Positions 194-6,218 of a stretch of 6,734 nt of DNA are shown here, in pieces. The DNA lies in the IMG/VR virus record IMGVR_UViG_648276647_000003, positions 1 to 6,734 of that record; one strand, given 5' to 3'. Positions within the stretch are counted from its first letter, which is position 1; the number at the start of each line of letters is the position of its first letter. This DNA is from a virus (Duplodnaviria; Heunggongvirae; Uroviricota; Caudoviricetes). The notes beneath the pieces were generated by a model. It searched no databases and was not told where the DNA came from. It saw only the letters and a program-made list of their open reading frames with translations. Both the position numbers and the translations under genes were made by a program.

Positions 194-390
194 CCTTCAA
201 TAGCCTGCCGGGTGGTGAAGATTTTATTCTTCGTCCGGCGCTTGCCTTCCATATTGACCAGAAAGATCTTAACAGTGGTGCGGTAGATCTCTGTCGCATC
301 GCGCTTCTTAATGACTACCTTGATATGTGCGAGGACAACGATGTCCGGGTAGAAAAATGGAGAGAGGATAATGAACGCCGAGACTATTAA
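2..390 (+). CDS. Predicted -1 frameshift fusion product of the tail assembly chaperone (gpGT / P2 E+E' analogue); slip at 142-148, extension ends at TAA 388-390
   Basis: The -1 frame is closed upstream by TGA at 85-87 and open from 88 to 390. After a slip on T TTT TTG it reads FFARTPYQRDAHPASGITFNSLPGGEDFILRPALAFHIDQKDLNSGAVDLCRIALLNDYLDMCEDNDVRVEKWREDNERRDY*, overlapping the tape measure ATG (371) by 20 nt. Confidence 0.4.
142..148 (+). promoter_or_regulatory. Programmed -1 ribosomal frameshift slippery heptamer T TTT TTG (X XXY YYZ in the zero frame)
   Basis: Zero-frame codons are aat(140-142) ttt(143-145) ttg(146-148), so the heptamer is correctly phased, 45 nt before the chaperone stop, and the -1 frame is open downstream. 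Confidence 0.5.
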
Positions 391-2359
391 AGATTTCCTC
401 GTCTCGCTTGGCTTCAGTGTGGATGATGCAGGAGCGAAAAAGTTCGGTTCTGTCCTCGCCGGTACAACTGCAAATGTCATCAAAATGGGACTGGCCGTTG
501 AAGGAGCTGCGCTGTCCGTGGTGGCCTTCACGGCTAAGATCGCCTCCGGCCTGGATAATCTTTACTGGGCGTCACAGCGCACCGGCGCGACGGTCCAGGG
601 AATTCAGACTATTGGCTATGCGGTTTCGCAGGTTGGCGGTAGCGTGGACGCTGCGCGATCTTCTCTGGAAAGCCTCTCCCGGTTTATTCGTAACAATCCC
701 GGTGCAGAAGGCTTTCTGAATCGCCTGGGCGTACAGACCCGTGATGCCAGCGGTAACATGCGTGACATGGCCGCTATCTTTACGGGCGTTGGACAGAAAC
801 TCAGCAGCATGCCGTATTACCGGGCTAACCAGTATGCGCAGATGCTGGGCATTGACGAAAATACCCTTATGGCGATGCGCCGGGGTGTGGGTGGTTTCTC
901 CGGGCAGTACAGCGCAATGGCGAAAGCTATCGGCTTCAATGCTGACGAGGCGGCCAGAAGCTCCAACAAATTTATGACCTCCCTGCGTGAGTTTGGCGCG
1001 ATGGCAGGCATGGCCCGTGACAAAATCGGCTCTAATCTTGCGGGTGGACTTGCGGGTTCGTTGGACACCCTGCGCCGCCATATCCTGGACAACTTCCCGC
1101 GTATCGAGCAGACCCTGACGAAAGCCATAAAAGGCATTCTGGCGCTCGGGGATATTATCGGGCGGCTGTTCTTCAGACTGATTGAAGGAACATCAGGCCT
1201 CATCACCTGGTGGCAATCGCTGGATAAGCAAACGCGGGAGTTGATCTCGCTGTTTGGCGCACTGACGATTGCGCTGCGCATTCTGAACAGTACGTTCTGG
1301 ATGTCGCCGATTGGCCTCATTACCGCGCTGGCGGCGGGGATTGCCCTCCTGTGGGAGGACTATCAGACCTGGAAGGAAGGCGGCGACAGCCTGATTGACT
1401 GGGGCAAGTGGAAACCGGAGGTTGATGCCGCGCTGAAGATGGTTCGTGACCTTAAAACGACCGTTAACGACCTGGTGAAAGCGCTGGCGAAACTGCTCAA
1501 TATTGACCCCAAATCATGGTCCCTGAAGTGGGATTTCAGCAACTTCATCGACCAGATGGGCGAATTCAGCAAAATGCTGAACATGATCGCCGACCTACTC
1601 AACGCTATCAAAGATGGCCGCTGGGTTGATGCCGTCAGCATCGGCAAACAGATACTTAATCAGGGCAGCGAAAATCCGTCAGCGATGCCGATGGTTACAG
1701 ACAGCGCTAACAGTACTGCCGACTGGATTAAAGAGCACTGGGGATTCGATCCCCGCAGCGTGGGCCGGACGGTACGCGGCTGGTTTGGTGATGATGAGCC
1801 GGAACAATATGCACAGGCTACGAAACGAGGAGAACGGAATAACAATCCGGGAAACCTTAATTTTGCTGGTCAGGTAGGGGCTTCTCTTGAACGCCCGGGC
1901 GGGCGATTTGCCAGATTTGAAACTGCTTTTGATGGATTACGGGCTCTTGCTCGTCAGTTAATGCTGTACGCCGGACGGGGAATAAACAGTGTGGAGAAAA
2001 TTATCTCTACCTGGGCACCTGCGTCTGATAATAACAACACAACTGCGTATATCAGGGCTGTATCGCAACGACTGGGAGTGGATCCCCGGGCTGCCCTGAA
2101 TATGAGCGATCCGCAAACCATGTCAGCATTGATGAGCAGCATTATCCAGCATGAAAATGGAAGAAATATCTATTCTCGAGAGCTGATTAATAAGGCTGCC
2201 GTAGCGGGAATTAGTGGCAAAGTGACAGAGGTTAACCAGCAAAATACCTACCACATTTACGGTGGCGGAGATCCGCACGCTGTCGGTAATGAGGTTGCAC
2301 GTCGGCAACAGTCTGCAAATGCTCAGGTCATGCGAAGTAATCAGGTGAGGGTGGGTTAG
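371..2359 (+). CDS. Phage tail tape measure protein (662 aa)
   Basis: Long ORF immediately after the chaperone/frameshift pair, with RBS ggagagagg a few nt before the ATG. The N-terminal two thirds is Ala/Gly/Leu-rich with hydrophobic segments (e.g. LISLFGALTIALRILNSTFWMSPIGLITALAAGIALLW) typical of tape measure proteins; a distinct C-terminal domain follows. Size and position fit a contractile-tail tape measure. Confidence 0.85.
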   Translation: MNAETIKDFLVSLGFSVDDAGAKKFGSVLAGTTANVIKMGLAVEGAALSVVAFTAKIASGLDNLYWASQRTGATVQGIQTIGYAVSQVGGSVDAARSSLESLSRFIRNNPGAEGFLNRLGVQTRDASGNMRDMAAIFTGVGQKLSSMPYYRANQYAQMLGIDENTLMAMRRGVGGFSGQYSAMAKAIGFNADEAARSSNKFMTSLREFGAMAGMARDKIGSNLAGGLAGSLDTLRRHILDNFPRIEQTLTKAIKGILALGDIIGRLFFRLIEGTSGLITWWQSLDKQTRELISLFGALTIALRILNSTFWMSPIGLITALAAGIALLWEDYQTWKEGGDSLIDWGKWKPEVDAALKMVRDLKTTVNDLVKALAKLLNIDPKSWSLKWDFSNFIDQMGEFSKMLNMIADLLNAIKDGRWVDAVSIGKQILNQGSENPSAMPMVTDSANSTADWIKEHWGFDPRSVGRTVRGWFGDDEPEQYAQATKRGERNNNPGNLNFAGQVGASLERPGGRFARFETAFDGLRALARQLMLYAGRGINSVEKIISTWAPASDNNNTTAYIRAVSQRLGVDPRAALNMSDPQTMSALMSSIIQHENGRNIYSRELINKAAVAGISGKVTEVNQQNTYHIYGGGDPHAVGNEVARRQQSANAQVMRSNQVRVG

Positions 2360-2946
2360 TGGATATTCTCTCTACACTTTTTCATCAGCAGAGTAGAAAA
2401 ATAGGAATGATTGTTCCCAGTGTTGTTATTTCAGAGAAGCATACAGATATGCTTGAAATAACAGAGCATCCGGTAGAGGTCGGGGCCGCTGTCGCTGATC
2501 ATGCCTATAAAAAACCGTCAGAAGTGGTGATGGAGGTTGGTTTTGCCGGTGGCGGCGCATTGCTGGATTTTGCCAGTAACCTGACGGCTACCAGCCTGCT
2601 CGGCCTGAGTCCTCAGCAGACGTATCAGGAGCTACTGGGTCTGCAGGAAAGCCGTATCCCCTTCGATGTGGTAACCGGTAAACGACTGTACAGCAACATG
2701 TTGATCCGGGCGCTGGAAGTGACGACGGACAAGACAACCGAAAACGTCCTGTCCGCCGTCCTCACCCTGAGGGAGGTCCTTATCTCCCGGACACAGCAGA
2801 TTACCGTCGCGGATAAAACCAACATGAAGGAAGGGGCCAGCACGTCGGCGGTACAGAACAGCGGCAACAAAACCACAAAGCCTCCAGATACTTCACTGCT
2901 GAAAAGCATCACGGGTAACGTGGCGTCATTACTGGGAGGCGGATAA
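2359..2946 (+). CDS. Phage tail/baseplate-associated protein, function unassigned (occupies the position of Mu gp43-like proteins after the tape measure)
   Basis: 195-aa ORF whose GTG start overlaps the tape measure stop (TAGTG at 2357-2361), preceded by a gaggg RBS. An alternative ATG at 2407 would give a shorter product. Family assignment is by position only. Confidence 0.55.
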   Translation: MDILSTLFHQQSRKIGMIVPSVVISEKHTDMLEITEHPVEVGAAVADHAYKKPSEVVMEVGFAGGGALLDFASNLTATSLLGLSPQQTYQELLGLQESRIPFDVVTGKRLYSNMLIRALEVTTDKTTENVLSAVLTLREVLISRTQQITVADKTNMKEGASTSAVQNSGNKTTKPPDTSLLKSITGNVASLLGGG

Positions 2947-3248
2947 TGACAATTCAGGAAATTCCGCTGACAGCGGACAATCAGCAGTTCAGCATCGTCC
3001 TGGGGGGTGTCACCTGGCGGATTAGCATCATATGGCGCGATCTTTACTGGATTATGGACCTGCAGAACGACAGAGGGGAGCCGGTAATCTCCGGTATTCC
3101 TCTCGTCACTGGTGCTGACCTGCTGGCGCAGTACGCCTGTATGGGGCTTGGTTTTAAGCTGGTGGTGGTCTGTGATGACAACACACAGGATTACCCCACA
3201 AAAACTGACCTGGGCGGTCGCAGCCATTTACTGGTATCAACGGAGTAA
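2946..3248 (+). CDS. Small phage tail/baseplate-associated protein (100 aa), function unknown
   Basis: ATG overlaps the upstream stop (ATAATG at 2944-2948) and its own stop lies 2 nt before the next ATG, so it is tightly coupled within the structural operon. Confidence 0.55.
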   Translation: MTIQEIPLTADNQQFSIVLGGVTWRISIIWRDLYWIMDLQNDRGEPVISGIPLVTGADLLAQYACMGLGFKLVVVCDDNTQDYPTKTDLGGRSHLLVSTE

Positions 3249-3250
3249 GC

Positions 3251-4321
3251 ATGTCACAGAACTGGATGAGACATTTCGAGCTGCAGCTTGTGGACGGGAA
3301 CGGTCAGGGAATTGAGCTAAGTGATTTCAAAGTCACCTTTACGATCGACTGGTTCAACATCAGCAGCGCGTCCCGGGTAGGGACTATCAAAATTTATAAC
3401 CTCTCGGCAGATACTGTGAACCGAATTACCGGGCAGGAGTTTTCGAAAGTGCGTCTGATTGCCGGTTACGACGGTATCGCGCCGGAGGTGTCAGCAAGCG
3501 ACGTAGGGACCGTGCGGGAAGTTGACGCGGCGGACGTGGGCCAGAGAGATGGCCGCAACTACGGACTGATTTTCAGCGGTGAAATTCGCTACTCGGTCAC
3601 AGGAAAAGACAGTCCGGTTGATACCTACGTCCTGATTCAGGCAGCAGATACTGATCTGGCTTTTGCCACCAGTATAACCTCACAGACGCTGGCTGCCGGT
3701 TACACGGTCGCTGATGTGAACCGTGCGCTGATGAAAGACTTCGAAGCCAAAGGCGCGACCGAAGGCCTGACGCCTGAAATGCCTGCTACTGTATTCCCCC
3801 GGGGGCGGGTACTCTTTGGCATGACGCGGCATCTAATGGATAACGTAGCCGGACAATGTGGCGCAACATGGCAATTCGTGGACGGTCAGCGCCAGATGGT
3901 GGCGAATAACGAATATGTTCATGAAGCGATTGTGCTCAACAGCGCTACCGGGCTTATTGGCATGCCGCAGCAGACCATCGGCAACGGCGTAAACGTCCGC
4001 GCGCTTATTAATCCGAACATCCGGGTTAATGGGCTCATTCAACTGGATCAGGCTTCTATCTATAAAACAGCTTTACCGAATGACGATATTGCTAAAGCAG
4101 CGGGACGTTACTTTGACGAAACAATAGATGGCAACTCTAACGTTACCCTGCCCGTGTCCAAACAAATGACGGCCAGCATCGCAACTGATGGCGTTTATAT
4201 TGTGCGCGGGATTATGTACACTGGCGACACAAGGGGCCAGGCCTGGTACATGGATATGATGTGCGAAGCGCGCGGTGCGCAGGATATGCCATCCAGCACT
4301 GCTTTGCAGAGAGGATTATAG
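3251..4321 (+). CDS. Putative baseplate hub protein (Mu gp44 / P2 gpD / T4 gp27-like), 356 aa
   Basis: 356-aa ORF located between the tape-measure-proximal proteins and the central spike, which is the conserved hub position in Mu-like tail modules. The hub assignment is positional and by size, not a verified motif match. Confidence 0.55.
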   Translation: MSQNWMRHFELQLVDGNGQGIELSDFKVTFTIDWFNISSASRVGTIKIYNLSADTVNRITGQEFSKVRLIAGYDGIAPEVSASDVGTVREVDAADVGQRDGRNYGLIFSGEIRYSVTGKDSPVDTYVLIQAADTDLAFATSITSQTLAAGYTVADVNRALMKDFEAKGATEGLTPEMPATVFPRGRVLFGMTRHLMDNVAGQCGATWQFVDGQRQMVANNEYVHEAIVLNSATGLIGMPQQTIGNGVNVRALINPNIRVNGLIQLDQASIYKTALPNDDIAKAAGRYFDETIDGNSNVTLPVSKQMTASIATDGVYIVRGIMYTGDTRGQAWYMDMMCEARGAQDMPSSTALQRGL

Positions 4322-4323
4322 AA

Positions 4324-4668
4324 ATGAAACGATGGATATTTTCATTGCTGGCGTTAGTGTCTGTTGGTGTAAGTGCAAACACCATAACGATGCAATGCGG
4401 CAACTTTCGTATGGATGCGATCCCTGACTCATTATTTAAAATCAATGGCGAAACAGTAACGTCCCAAAAAGTAAAAATGTTGGGTAAAGACGGTACAGGC
4501 ATGCAGATCAAAATGGGGCTGATGCCTGCCAAAGATGGCCACAATTATGGGTTCGAGTATATCCATCGACCGGGCACCGAAACGCGTTTCCTGAACGTCC
4601 AGCTTCTGCAGAACAGCATGGACGCGCCTAGAATCATCGGGTCTTTCCCATGCAAAAAAGTTAATTAA
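4324..4668 (+). CDS. Small secreted/periplasmic protein, paralog A (114 aa precursor); cargo (moron) gene, function unknown
   Basis: ATG at 4324 is preceded by an agagagg RBS and starts 2 nt after the hub stop. N-terminus MKRWIFSLLALVSVGVSA-NTITMQC is a typical Sec signal peptide with an AXA-type cleavage site and no lipobox. Mature protein has Cys near its N-terminus (QCG) and near its C-terminus (FPCKK). Lower GC than flanking genes by eye. The track's longer 4261 start would overlap the hub gene and place the signal peptide internally. Confidence 0.7.
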   Translation: MKRWIFSLLALVSVGVSANTITMQCGNFRMDAIPDSLFKINGETVTSQKVKMLGKDGTGMQIKMGLMPAKDGHNYGFEYIHRPGTETRFLNVQLLQNSMDAPRIIGSFPCKKVN

Positions 4669-4680
4669 CAGGGGGGATTA

Positions 4681-5046
4681 ATGAAGCGCTTAGCTCTCTT
4701 ATCTCTTGTTTTTATGTCGTATAGCGTGCTTGCAGCGCCTGTTTTGCGCTTTAAGTGCGGTGACGATAAATTTGTAATGTATGTGAATGCCTCAATGAGT
4801 AAACAGGCAGTCATAATGAACGATCAGCTAACAGAAAATTCAGCCACTGACCAGTATCCGTACGGTGACTTGGGGGATTCGGTGGTCATCACATTTGATG
4901 TATGGGGGGCGAATGGTGGGATGCATAACCACTACACAACTGTTTTCCCTAACGATTCAAAAACTATTAAACAAATAGTTCAGATTTTAGACGCAGATGA
5001 TCGCCCCCGTGGTGATGCCATCTATAAGACCTGCACGAAAATGTAG
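4681..5046 (+). CDS. Small secreted/periplasmic protein, paralog B (121 aa precursor); cargo (moron) gene, function unknown
   Basis: RBS gggggga lies just upstream of the ATG at 4681. Signal peptide MKRLALLSLVFMSYSVLA-APVLRFKC. Mature protein has the same two-Cys layout as paralog A (KCG ... KTCTK) and a shared C-terminal block (VQIL...PR...C.K versus VQLL...PR...C.K in A). AT-rich by eye. Confidence 0.7.
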   Translation: MKRLALLSLVFMSYSVLAAPVLRFKCGDDKFVMYVNASMSKQAVIMNDQLTENSATDQYPYGDLGDSVVITFDVWGANGGMHNHYTTVFPNDSKTIKQIVQILDADDRPRGDAIYKTCTKM

Positions 5047-5071
5047 GAACCTTATCGCAGACACCATTTAA

Positions 5072-5093
5072 CCCGCCACCCGGCGGGTTTTTT
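5072..5093 (+). terminator. Rho-independent terminator: 6-bp GC stem cccgcc/ggcggg, 4-nt loop, T6 tract
   Basis: cccgcc(5072-5077) accc ggcggg(5082-5087) tttttt(5088-5093), beginning 26 nt after the paralog B stop codon. Confidence 0.6.
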
Positions 5094-5112
5094 GCTTTCT
5101 GGAGCCTACTAA

Positions 5113-5865
5113 ATGGCAGTATCTGACCAGACCCGCAGCGGCGACCTTGCCGAAACATTCAAATCTGAACGGGAAACAACAAAGAACCAGATCCGTGTCG
5201 CCTTGCCTGGCATTATTCAGTCATTCGATCCTGACGCGGTGACGGCGGTTGTGCAGCCAGCTATCCGTTCGGTTGAAAAGGATAACTACGGTAACCGCAT
5301 TACCAAAAATTACCCATTGCTGGTGGATGTGCCAGTGGTATTCCCGCGCGGCGGAGGCTGTACGTTGACTTTTCCGGTAAAAGCCGGGGATGAGTGTCTT
5401 GTCGTTTTTGCCGATCGTTGTATTGATTTCTGGTGGCAGAGTGGCGGGATACAGGAGCCAGTCGATGACAGAATGCATGATTTATCGGATGCGTTTTGTA
5501 TTGTCGGTCCCCAGTCGCAGGCAAGGAAGATTAGCGGTATTAATACCAGTGCCACACAGTTGCGTAGTGACGACGGCAGCACCTATTTTGAGCTTAATCC
5601 TGATACCAGGAAAATTAAAATTGTCGCTCCGGGTGGTCTTGATGTGGTTGCCCCTCTGGCTGATTTTTCTGAGAAAGTAACCATTCATGGCCTGTTAACC
5701 TGGATGGGTGGCATGGTGGGGTCTGTTGTTTCTGGTGTGGCTTCAAAAATCACTGGTGCTGTTGAGTTTTTGGGGAGCGTGAAGGCTAACGGCAAGCCAA
5801 TCGATGATACGCACACTCATGGCGGTGTTCAGCGCGGTGGAAGCAGTACCGACGGGGTAAACTGA
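5113..5865 (+). CDS. Baseplate central spike protein (P2 gpV / Mu gp45 / gp138-like), 250 aa
   Basis: RBS ggag lies 8 nt upstream of the ATG. The N-terminal OB-fold region (PLLVDVPVVFPRGGGCTLTFPVKAGDECLVVFADRCIDFWW...RMHDLSDAFCIVG) matches the hallmark pattern of gpV-type spikes. The Gly-rich C-terminus contains HTHGG, resembling the His-containing apex of spike proteins. Confidence 0.85.
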   Translation: MAVSDQTRSGDLAETFKSERETTKNQIRVALPGIIQSFDPDAVTAVVQPAIRSVEKDNYGNRITKNYPLLVDVPVVFPRGGGCTLTFPVKAGDECLVVFADRCIDFWWQSGGIQEPVDDRMHDLSDAFCIVGPQSQARKISGINTSATQLRSDDGSTYFELNPDTRKIKIVAPGGLDVVAPLADFSEKVTIHGLLTWMGGMVGSVVSGVASKITGAVEFLGSVKANGKPIDDTHTHGGVQRGGSSTDGVN

Positions 5866-6218
5866 TGCGATACAGACGTGAAGACGCCGATGGCGATTAC
5901 ACCTTTGGCAGCGGTGATGACACCTGGCTGATTAACTCACCGGAGGCCGTGGCGCAGGCGGTAAAAACGCGATTCGAATTGTGGTATGGGCAATGGTTTC
6001 TCGACACCACCGAGGGGACTCCGTGGATCCAGTCCGTACTCGGTAAGCAGAAGCCGGAAACCTACAACCTGGCGATCAGAAAACGCATTCTGGAAACGCA
6101 GGGCGTTAAATCAATCCTCTCTTTCAATACGACGGTGGATACCACGACCCGACGTGTCATGTTTTCCGCTGAAATCGACACTCTCTATGGAATAACGACT
6201 GTTACATCGGAGGCGTAA
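5865..6218 (+). CDS. Small baseplate wedge protein (Mu gp46 / P2 gpW / T4 gp25-like position), 117 aa
   Basis: ATG overlaps the spike stop (TGATG at 5863-5867). Size and position between spike and baseplate J fit the gp25-like wedge protein; a TRFELWYG segment loosely resembles the gpW motif. Family assignment is tentative. Confidence 0.6.
   Translation: MRYRREDADGDYTFGSGDDTWLINSPEAVAQAVKTRFELWYGQWFLDTTEGTPWIQSVLGKQKPETYNLAIRKRILETQGVKSILSFNTTVDTTTRRVMFSAEIDTLYGITTVTSEA

Follow-up and report, generated by a model that had tools for sequence, protein, structure and literature searches.

Genes and source of the window

The stretch of DNA analyzed here, hereafter the window, is 6,734 nt long and, as assessed by ORF mapping and by searches of Pfam and PHROGs, consists of a single co-oriented series of tail genes (Table 1). 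Neighbouring genes abut or overlap at all junctions but two, where there are spacers of 12 nt and 66 nt (5047–5112), the latter directly preceding the gene for the membrane-puncturing spike. A hairpin occupies this 66-nt spacer; no other intergenic gap of the window exceeds 12 nt. Two other features of the upstream part were recorded. The C-terminal region of the tape measure protein (residues ∼440–650) matches phage lytic transglycosylase/endolysin families, and the homologous protein of E. coli P4 carries the annotation lytic transglycosylase. A long imperfect hairpin of 12 pairs (275–302, + strand), lacking a proper T-run, precedes the tape measure gene in the chaperone/DUF6889 region and could reflect the frameshift site usual for the chaperone rather than termination.

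Table 1. Genes and features of the window, with the evidence for each.
Feature	Position	Strand	Evidence
Tape measure	371–2359	+	
Dit-like baseplate protein	2359–2946	+	
Plug	2946–3248	+	
Baseplate hub, left backbone flank of the slot	3251–4321	+	phrog_196, E 1.5e-89; homologues in 77 related loci
o114, small gene directly after the hub	4324–4668	+	phrog_3443, unknown function, E 8e-51
Variable cargo slot (E. coli relatives), o114 last codons to hairpin base	4661–5069	+	homology ends and resumes
o121, variable cargo gene	4681–5046	+	no Pfam or PHROG family
Terminator hairpin, 8-bp stem, ACCC loop	5070–5089	+	sequence, consensus scan, folding, simulation, 71-sequence alignment
T6 run and U-rich tail (TTTTTTGCTTTC)	5088–5099	+	sequence; T columns invariant or nearly so (71-sequence alignment)
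Shine-Dalgarno GGAG of the spike gene	5101–5104	+	sequence, folding, kept in alignment
Membrane-puncturing spike, right backbone flank	5113–5865	+	Pfam spike N-terminal domain, E 1.4e-44, plus Apex motif
Wedge/W-like gene	5865–6218	+	
J-like gene, start only	6218 onward	+	

The closest matches of the window are the E. coli C25 and P4 prophages (97–98% identity), and in Salmonella phage SEN34 (Brunovirus) and four vB_EcoM phages the flanks are ∼90% identical to the window. The C25 and P4 prophages are lambdoid: an integrase, RecET, repressor/Cro-like and replication genes, and NinB lie upstream of the late genes, and NinB is followed, all on one strand, by genes for a DUF1133 protein and an antirepressor and then by holin, lysis, head, and tail genes. 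SEN34 forms plaques, can be induced with mitomycin, and is a myovirus whose regulatory genes are lambda-like (PMC5261728). The window represents the module for tail and baseplate in a SEN34-like prophage, a lambdoid myovirus. This module is found in 411 of 5426 complete E. coli genomes (∼8%) and in many other Enterobacterales, and the hub–spike insert of the window is present in only five of these 5426 genomes. In two near-identical E. coli prophages (L007:39661–41104, which is C25, and L095:33603–35046), the annotation gives a truncated tail-fibre gene, with ∼1.1 kb of unannotated sequence behind it; these prophages may be defective for a cause unrelated to the terminator.

Structure and conservation of the hairpin

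The stem of the hairpin is formed by A5070–C5077 (AACCCGCC) pairing with G5082–T5089 (GGCGGGTT), with six G–C pairs out of eight, and is closed by a 4-nt loop (5078–5081). The hairpin starts 24 nt past the o121 stop codon and is oriented like all the genes of the window. Its 3′ end runs into six T (5088–5093) followed by GCTTTC, and nine of the 12 bases past the G–C core are T. Next comes the ribosome-binding site of the spike gene, located 11 nt past the hairpin and 8 nt ahead of the ATG (5113), which is not sequestered by the hairpin as assessed by folding. Folded by itself, the hairpin has a free energy of −14.2 kcal/mol, and the entire 66-nt spacer reaches −20.7 kcal/mol (z = −4.3), a value equalled by none of 200 shuffled sequences. 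A consensus terminator scan called the hairpin on the + strand, and there is no T-run on its reverse strand. When the window was simulated 2000 times with a first-order Markov model, a site at least as good (a stem of at least 8 bp with at least six G–C pairs, and at least six T in 8 nt) arose in 0.1% of simulated windows per strand; the actual window has one qualifying site, on the + strand, and none on the − strand. When the whole window was searched with Rfam covariance models (E ≤ 1), there was no match. A 63-aa ORF on the − strand (4967–5158) spans the hairpin; it lacks support from relatives, in which the DNA ahead of the hairpin is unconserved, and is most likely spurious.

The element described in a first-pass annotation, made from the letters alone, as a strong intrinsic terminator within the late tail operon and just upstream of the spike gene is borne out by its stem, T6, folding energy, and rarity in simulation. 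The coordinates given there (5072–5093) are right, in that they delimit the G+C core plus T6 of a stem that in full begins at 5070. The sequence features expected of an intrinsic terminator are present, i.e. a G+C-rich stem-loop, an adjacent 3′ U-tract, a position past a stop codon, co-orientation with the genes, and evolutionary maintenance.

The last of these was assessed by scanning for homologues of the spike protein, with one genome per species, which yielded 80 loci with spike identities of 46–90% in Escherichia, Salmonella, Citrobacter, Enterobacter, Klebsiella, Pantoea, Erwinia, Yersinia, Serratia, Photorhabdus, Arsenophonus, and other genera. Hairpin counts were made on the 77 loci in which hub and spike are on one contig. 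In 64 of these, a hairpin with a T-run is found 15–24 nt before the spike ATG. Its occurrence depends on what lies between hub and spike. Whenever cargo is present beyond o114 (55 of 55 loci), the hairpin and T-run directly precede the ribosome-binding site of the spike gene, and seven of the 10 empty sites (gaps of 38–86 nt) have them too. Where o114 is the only gene at the junction, the hairpin is present in two of five loci, the other three having o114 abutting the spike gene, and it is found in none of the seven loci in which hub and spike overlap. Four loci (L024, L027, L055, and L062) were scored by reading the sequences and not by the hairpin scanner, which failed because A- or G-rich bases 5′ of the stem pair with the T-run (three loci) or because the loop is 14 nt long (one locus). 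Across the 580 kb covered by the loci, 58 of the 79 strict terminators on the + strand fall within the same 36-nt zone before the spike gene.

Variation in the stem is compensated. Among the loci, stems are 7–9 bp long and loops mostly 4–6 nt (3–14 nt overall), and compensated variants of the stem include CCCGCC/GGCGGG, CCTGC/GCAGG, GCCGC/GCGGC, CCCACC/GGTGGG, and CCCAGC/GCTGGG. In an alignment of 71 sequences, 92% of the cells are paired versus 35–66% when the 3′ arm is slid, five of the eight stem pairs show changes on both sides, and the observed covariation score is reached in none of 500 shuffles, figures that are descriptive and not probabilities since the loci are related to each other. 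An invariant T-run combined with compensatory changes in the stem argues for selection on an RNA hairpin followed by U's, i.e. on a terminator. A stable and conserved stem would also be compatible with an element of RNA stability or processing, a stem-loop that shields the 3′ end of the upstream or cargo mRNA with no termination involved. We consider such a role improbable: the adjacent T-run, which would be superfluous for 3′ protection, is a termination signature as conserved as the stem, and stem length and loop size match those of terminators.

Finally, we compared the 125 nt before the spike ATG with those of seven relatives harboring different inserts, namely a DUF2335 gene, a pair with a YafO toxin, and further hypothetical genes. 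The stretch of identity opens precisely with the first stem base and continues through the T-run and the ribosome-binding site into the spike gene, whose 5′ end is conserved in DNA and contiguous with the hairpin and leader. A candidate explanation in which the hairpin and leader form an isolated island of DNA identity, i.e. a recombination patch, was rejected because identity runs on into this conserved 5′ end. Considering that relatives with unrelated cargo and with empty sites have the hairpin in common, it is not a property of the insert in the window.

Borders and contents of the hub–spike slot

On the left side, homology to relatives with other cargo stops within the last ∼4 codons of o114. 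Together with the edge at the base of the stem, this delimits a variable segment of ∼4661–5069, i.e. o121 only. The first-pass annotation had treated o114 and o121 as a two-gene cargo pair, a view that has to be revised. Judging by its distribution, o114 is better viewed as a semi-core gene than as cargo in the same sense as o121: its family has 61 members in the related loci, always on the + strand and in most loci directly behind the hub gene, and it is represented by 332 protein clusters, all of them unnamed and with no Pfam family, as opposed to only 15 protein clusters for o121. Both genes have a lower G+C content (44.9% for o114 and 43.4% for o121) than the flanking tail genes (50–54%).

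The two proteins have several features in common. Each has a signal peptide, a Cys right past the predicted cleavage site (xCG), and a second Cys near the C terminus, and confident AF2 models of both are all-β (pLDDT of 82 for o114 and 78 for o121). There is a weak resemblance to avidin/lipocalin-like β-barrels (TM ≤ 0.5), and searches for function in Pfam and for folds in PDB and BFVD gave no significant match for either protein, the PHROG of o114 having no known function. An hhalign comparison (probability 56%, E 1e-4) is only suggestive of o114 and o121 being remote paralogues. Since o114 is conserved, predicted to be periplasmic, and encoded beside a tail-tip gene, a function in superinfection exclusion is worth considering.

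In the related loci, the distance between hub and spike ranges from an overlap (seven loci) to ∼2.8 kb. The gaps contain 179 ORFs, of which 163 are co-oriented with the hairpin and the late genes, and those outside the o114 family form 55 unrelated clusters, most without any match. Recognised cargo includes Phd/YefM, YafO, Fic/Doc, FitA-like and Arc repressors, a P22-type antirepressor, a superinfection-immunity protein (Imm_superinfect), DUF2335, T5orf172, PD-Lambda-1, and several PADLOC candidate systems (PDC). The hairpin is retained where the cargo gene next to it is antiparallel (L066, L072, and L082, and L023, in which it is the sole cargo gene). A motif, CCTGACATTTGATCAG(T), was noticed ∼20 nt 5′ of the hairpin in five loci with hairpin-proximal cargo on the minus strand: in L023, L072, and L082 this cargo belongs to a six-member family found on the minus strand only, and in L032 and L066 it forms singleton clusters. 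CCTGACATTTGATCAG may be the promoter/operator of the divergently oriented cargo gene.

Similar hairpins also occur at other junctions of the module. Four are located between plug and hub (L029:1682–1701 and L070:2485–2502, both without cargo, L033:1000–1019, and L089:2919–2945), and two are found at the spike–wedge junction, just past the spike gene (L078:4432–4458 and L085:4270–4296). At this last junction, SEN34 has a small extra ORF. In Serratia fonticola (L089), a homologue of o121 lies with its hairpin between plug and hub, and hub and spike abut; the first small gene adjoining this o121 homologue is not an o114 homologue. Two tandem hairpins are present upstream of the spike gene in L033 (3410–3500), the first followed by GCTTTCT, a fragment of an E. 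coli-type leader, which looks like the footprint of a cassette that arrived with its own terminator. Both L033 and Serratia fonticola show that a terminator can accompany a cassette as it moves. We considered whether the tandem terminators in L033 stem from a DUF2335 cassette passed recently between E. coli and Yersinia, and rejected this, because only the 29-nt terminator/leader matches and the genes are diverged; such a transfer is at most an old event.

These two cases, together with the sharp edges of the variable region, are what would be expected if the hairpin were a recombination joint, a landing pad for cassette swaps acting at the DNA level, with termination being incidental. This seems quite unlikely to us. 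The compensatory changes in the stem and the conserved T-run point to selection on RNA and not on DNA identity alone, no recombinase gene or repeat was found flanking the slot, and sharp edges are expected wherever a selected element abuts unrelated cargo.

Whatever its origin, the slot is a previously uncharted site for accessory genes with sharp, searchable borders. On the right, searches can use AACCCGC-loop-GCGGGTTTTTT followed by the spike gene, and on the left, the end of o114 or of the hub gene. These borders provide a handle for mining unknown prophage cargo, much of it without known function, and make the slot a testable case of insertion tolerance in structural operons.

Proposed transcription through the hairpin and likeness to known systems

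A terminator at this position raises the question of how the spike and the genes downstream of it are transcribed. A consensus scan for σ70 promoters found none on the + strand of the window, and in a PWM scan of 3900–5112 the best score (9.89) was lower than the median best score of shuffled sequence (10.36). There was thus no promoter above chance for o114 or o121 themselves or upstream of 4324, in agreement with the earlier statement that no convincing σ70 promoter is visible. Of the 31 intergenic gaps that lie within the slot in relatives, 15 contain a σ70-like site above the 95th percentile of matched coding windows, but these sites are only suggestive because A+T-rich spacers inflate the scores. 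A promoter in 5094–5112, which the first-pass annotation had offered as one way of expressing the downstream genes, is not supported, nineteen bases being too few and the scans giving no match there. Neither does its proposal of the cargo pair as an autonomous transcription unit hold, since the hairpin is common to relatives with unrelated cargo and to empty sites, and no promoter was found. With a 19-nt leader too short for a promoter and an unconserved sequence upstream of the hairpin, read-through would be the only route to spike expression.

The relatives of the window point to how read-through may be achieved. The DUF1133 protein of C25 and P4 belongs to PHROG 753 (phrog_753, "anti-termination protein Q-like", E 1e-81) and shows a weak sequence match to the structure of Q21 (6p18). 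Its gene is located just upstream of the lysis genes in C25, P4, and SEN34, and is annotated as Q-like in SEN34. Family annotation and the match to Q21 thus make this a putative Q-like protein, and the prophage in the window would be expected to have the same gene, as do its 97–98% identical relatives. In C25 (L007), the best promoter-like site in 20 kb, TTGACT-18-TATATT, lies at the stop codon of the Q-like gene (17766–17795), and a hairpin with T7 follows ∼65 nt past it (17858–17874), both being pattern matches only. Two further strong terminators flank an ORF6N antirepressor gene ahead of the holin gene (region 17766–18992). This antirepressor gene is closed by a hairpin of the AACCCGCC...GCGGGTT type, like the one studied here. 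Within the structural genes of C25, the studied hairpin is the sole strong terminator on the + strand. In SEN34, strict + strand terminators are found at 38689 and 38868 (between Q and holin), at 40649 (past the lysis genes), and at 16275 (the studied hairpin). SEN34, a viable phage, thus has four predicted terminators separating the late promoter region from the spike gene. Processive antitermination by Q is the established solution for terminators in lambdoid late operons (PMC2629481), and read-through by Q-type antitermination, which the first-pass annotation had listed among its options, fits the Q-like gene, promoter-like site, and terminator of C25, P4, and SEN34 and appears to be the best explanation here. 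In a family that has a Q-type antiterminator and viable members carrying the hairpin, the paradox of a terminator in the middle of an operon would be resolved.

The same comparison speaks against a further suggestion made from the sequence, that the insert and its terminator are polar on the baseplate genes and the prophage is crippled. C25 and P4 do have a truncated tail-fibre gene further downstream, although it is unrelated to the hairpin. On the other hand, SEN34, which yields plaques and myovirus particles, and four isolated vB_EcoM phages have the same hairpin in the same place, and so do most of the related loci (64/77), which leaves a defect of this kind scarcely credible.

Taken together, these findings suggest that the hairpin is probably a selected Rho-independent terminator that closes the cargo slot between hub and spike, insulates it in the lysogen, and is overridden by a Q-like antiterminator. 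We infer both termination and antitermination in vivo from sequence features. In the repressed prophage, the hairpin would halt transcription coming from or through the slot, e.g. from cargo promoters, before it reaches the spike, baseplate, and tail-fibre genes. After induction, Q-modified polymerase starting at the late promoter would pass the hairpin as well as several terminators upstream of it, the spike and downstream genes would be made from one long late transcript, and the spike would be translated from its own ribosome-binding site. Because the terminator, the leader, and the 5′ end of the spike gene form the right flank, and hub and o114 the left one, cargo would be exchanged between them, and genes newly inserted in the slot would be insulated automatically. 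In the window itself, where no promoter is detectable for o114 or o121, the terminator may have nothing to stop in the lysogen.

The hairpins in empty sites, next to antiparallel cargo, and at the plug–hub and spike–wedge junctions may be scars of lost cargo, may reflect a terminator that preceded the cargo and rendered the site permissive, or may point to a role in the late transcript itself, modestly attenuating or stabilising the RNA. A role of the last kind would be that of a partial terminator during lytic growth, an attenuator that sets the expression of spike, wedge, and fibre genes below that of the upstream genes. This would account for the hairpin in empty sites and beside cargo on the opposite strand, and for similar ones at cargo-free junctions of tail genes, and it has a precedent, a proposal of this kind having been made for the P22 "ant moron", which lies directly upstream of the tailspike gene (PMC2629481). 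We nevertheless hold it to be unlikely. The seven loci in which hub and spike overlap and the three in which o114 abuts the spike gene have no hairpin, indicating that a tail can be built unattenuated; Q-type antitermination would be expected to suppress such a terminator, as in lambdoid late operons (PMC2629481); and hub and spike are presumably needed at similar copy numbers, which leaves a step-down in expression without an obvious rationale.

Within the preferred reading, that of a slot-closing terminator overridden by antitermination, the order of events could be reversed. It is possible, though we are inclined to doubt it, that the terminator predates the cargo and creates the slot, a backbone insulator on the spike leader turning the junction into a transcriptional safe harbour. 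If so, defence, toxin-antitoxin, and accessory genes could gather and be swapped there without a dedicated recombinase, there would be several terminator-marked junctions per module (plug–hub, hub–spike, and spike–wedge), and conserved terminators inside operons would predict cargo hotspots in the structural operons of phages.

The arrangement resembles several known systems. The moron concept, developed with HK97 and HK022, is that of an extra gene with a σ70 promoter and a factor-independent terminator in a late operon. The terminator on the downstream side is part of the definition (PMC3714127). Like lambdoid morons, the slot genes interrupt a pair of genes that abut or overlap in related phages, are lower in G+C than their flanks, have a factor-independent terminator downstream, and lie in a late operon that, judging from the relatives, would be read by a Q-type antiterminated polymerase. 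Unlike lambdoid morons, the genes of the window have no detectable promoter. Moreover, a single terminator position is shared by empty sites and by no fewer than 55 cargo families unrelated to one another, which makes it a part of the slot or backbone and not of each moron. The likeness to the P22 "ant moron" (PMC2629481) lies in a single, highly variable slot in a morphogenetic operon, upstream of the gene for a host-contacting tail protein, with contents ranging from none to several genes, including antirepressor/Arc and superinfection-exclusion genes. The two differ in virion type (a contractile tail here, a podovirus in P22), in their flanking genes, which are unrelated, and in their gene repertoire, and what is conserved in the present slot is a terminator hairpin joined to the leader of the spike gene.

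The anti-phage hotspots of P2-like prophages and P4-like satellites are likewise reported to be fixed sites between conserved genes with interchangeable defence or toxin-antitoxin cargo (PMC9122126). The present slot belongs to another phage family, is located inside a tail operon, and holds mostly cargo without a recognised defence function. Finally, the order of elements in the relatives, i.e. a Q-like gene, a promoter-like site, a short leader, a terminator, and then lysis, head, and tail genes, is like that of lambda pR′–tR′ and Q, whereas their Q-like protein, unlike lambda Q, is a DUF1133/phrog_753 protein with a weak sequence link to Q21. The slot and its terminator are therefore known moron and late-operon logic in a newly described slot, and the mechanism is not surprising; the hairpin, most likely read through, is a good example of a known arrangement and not a defect.
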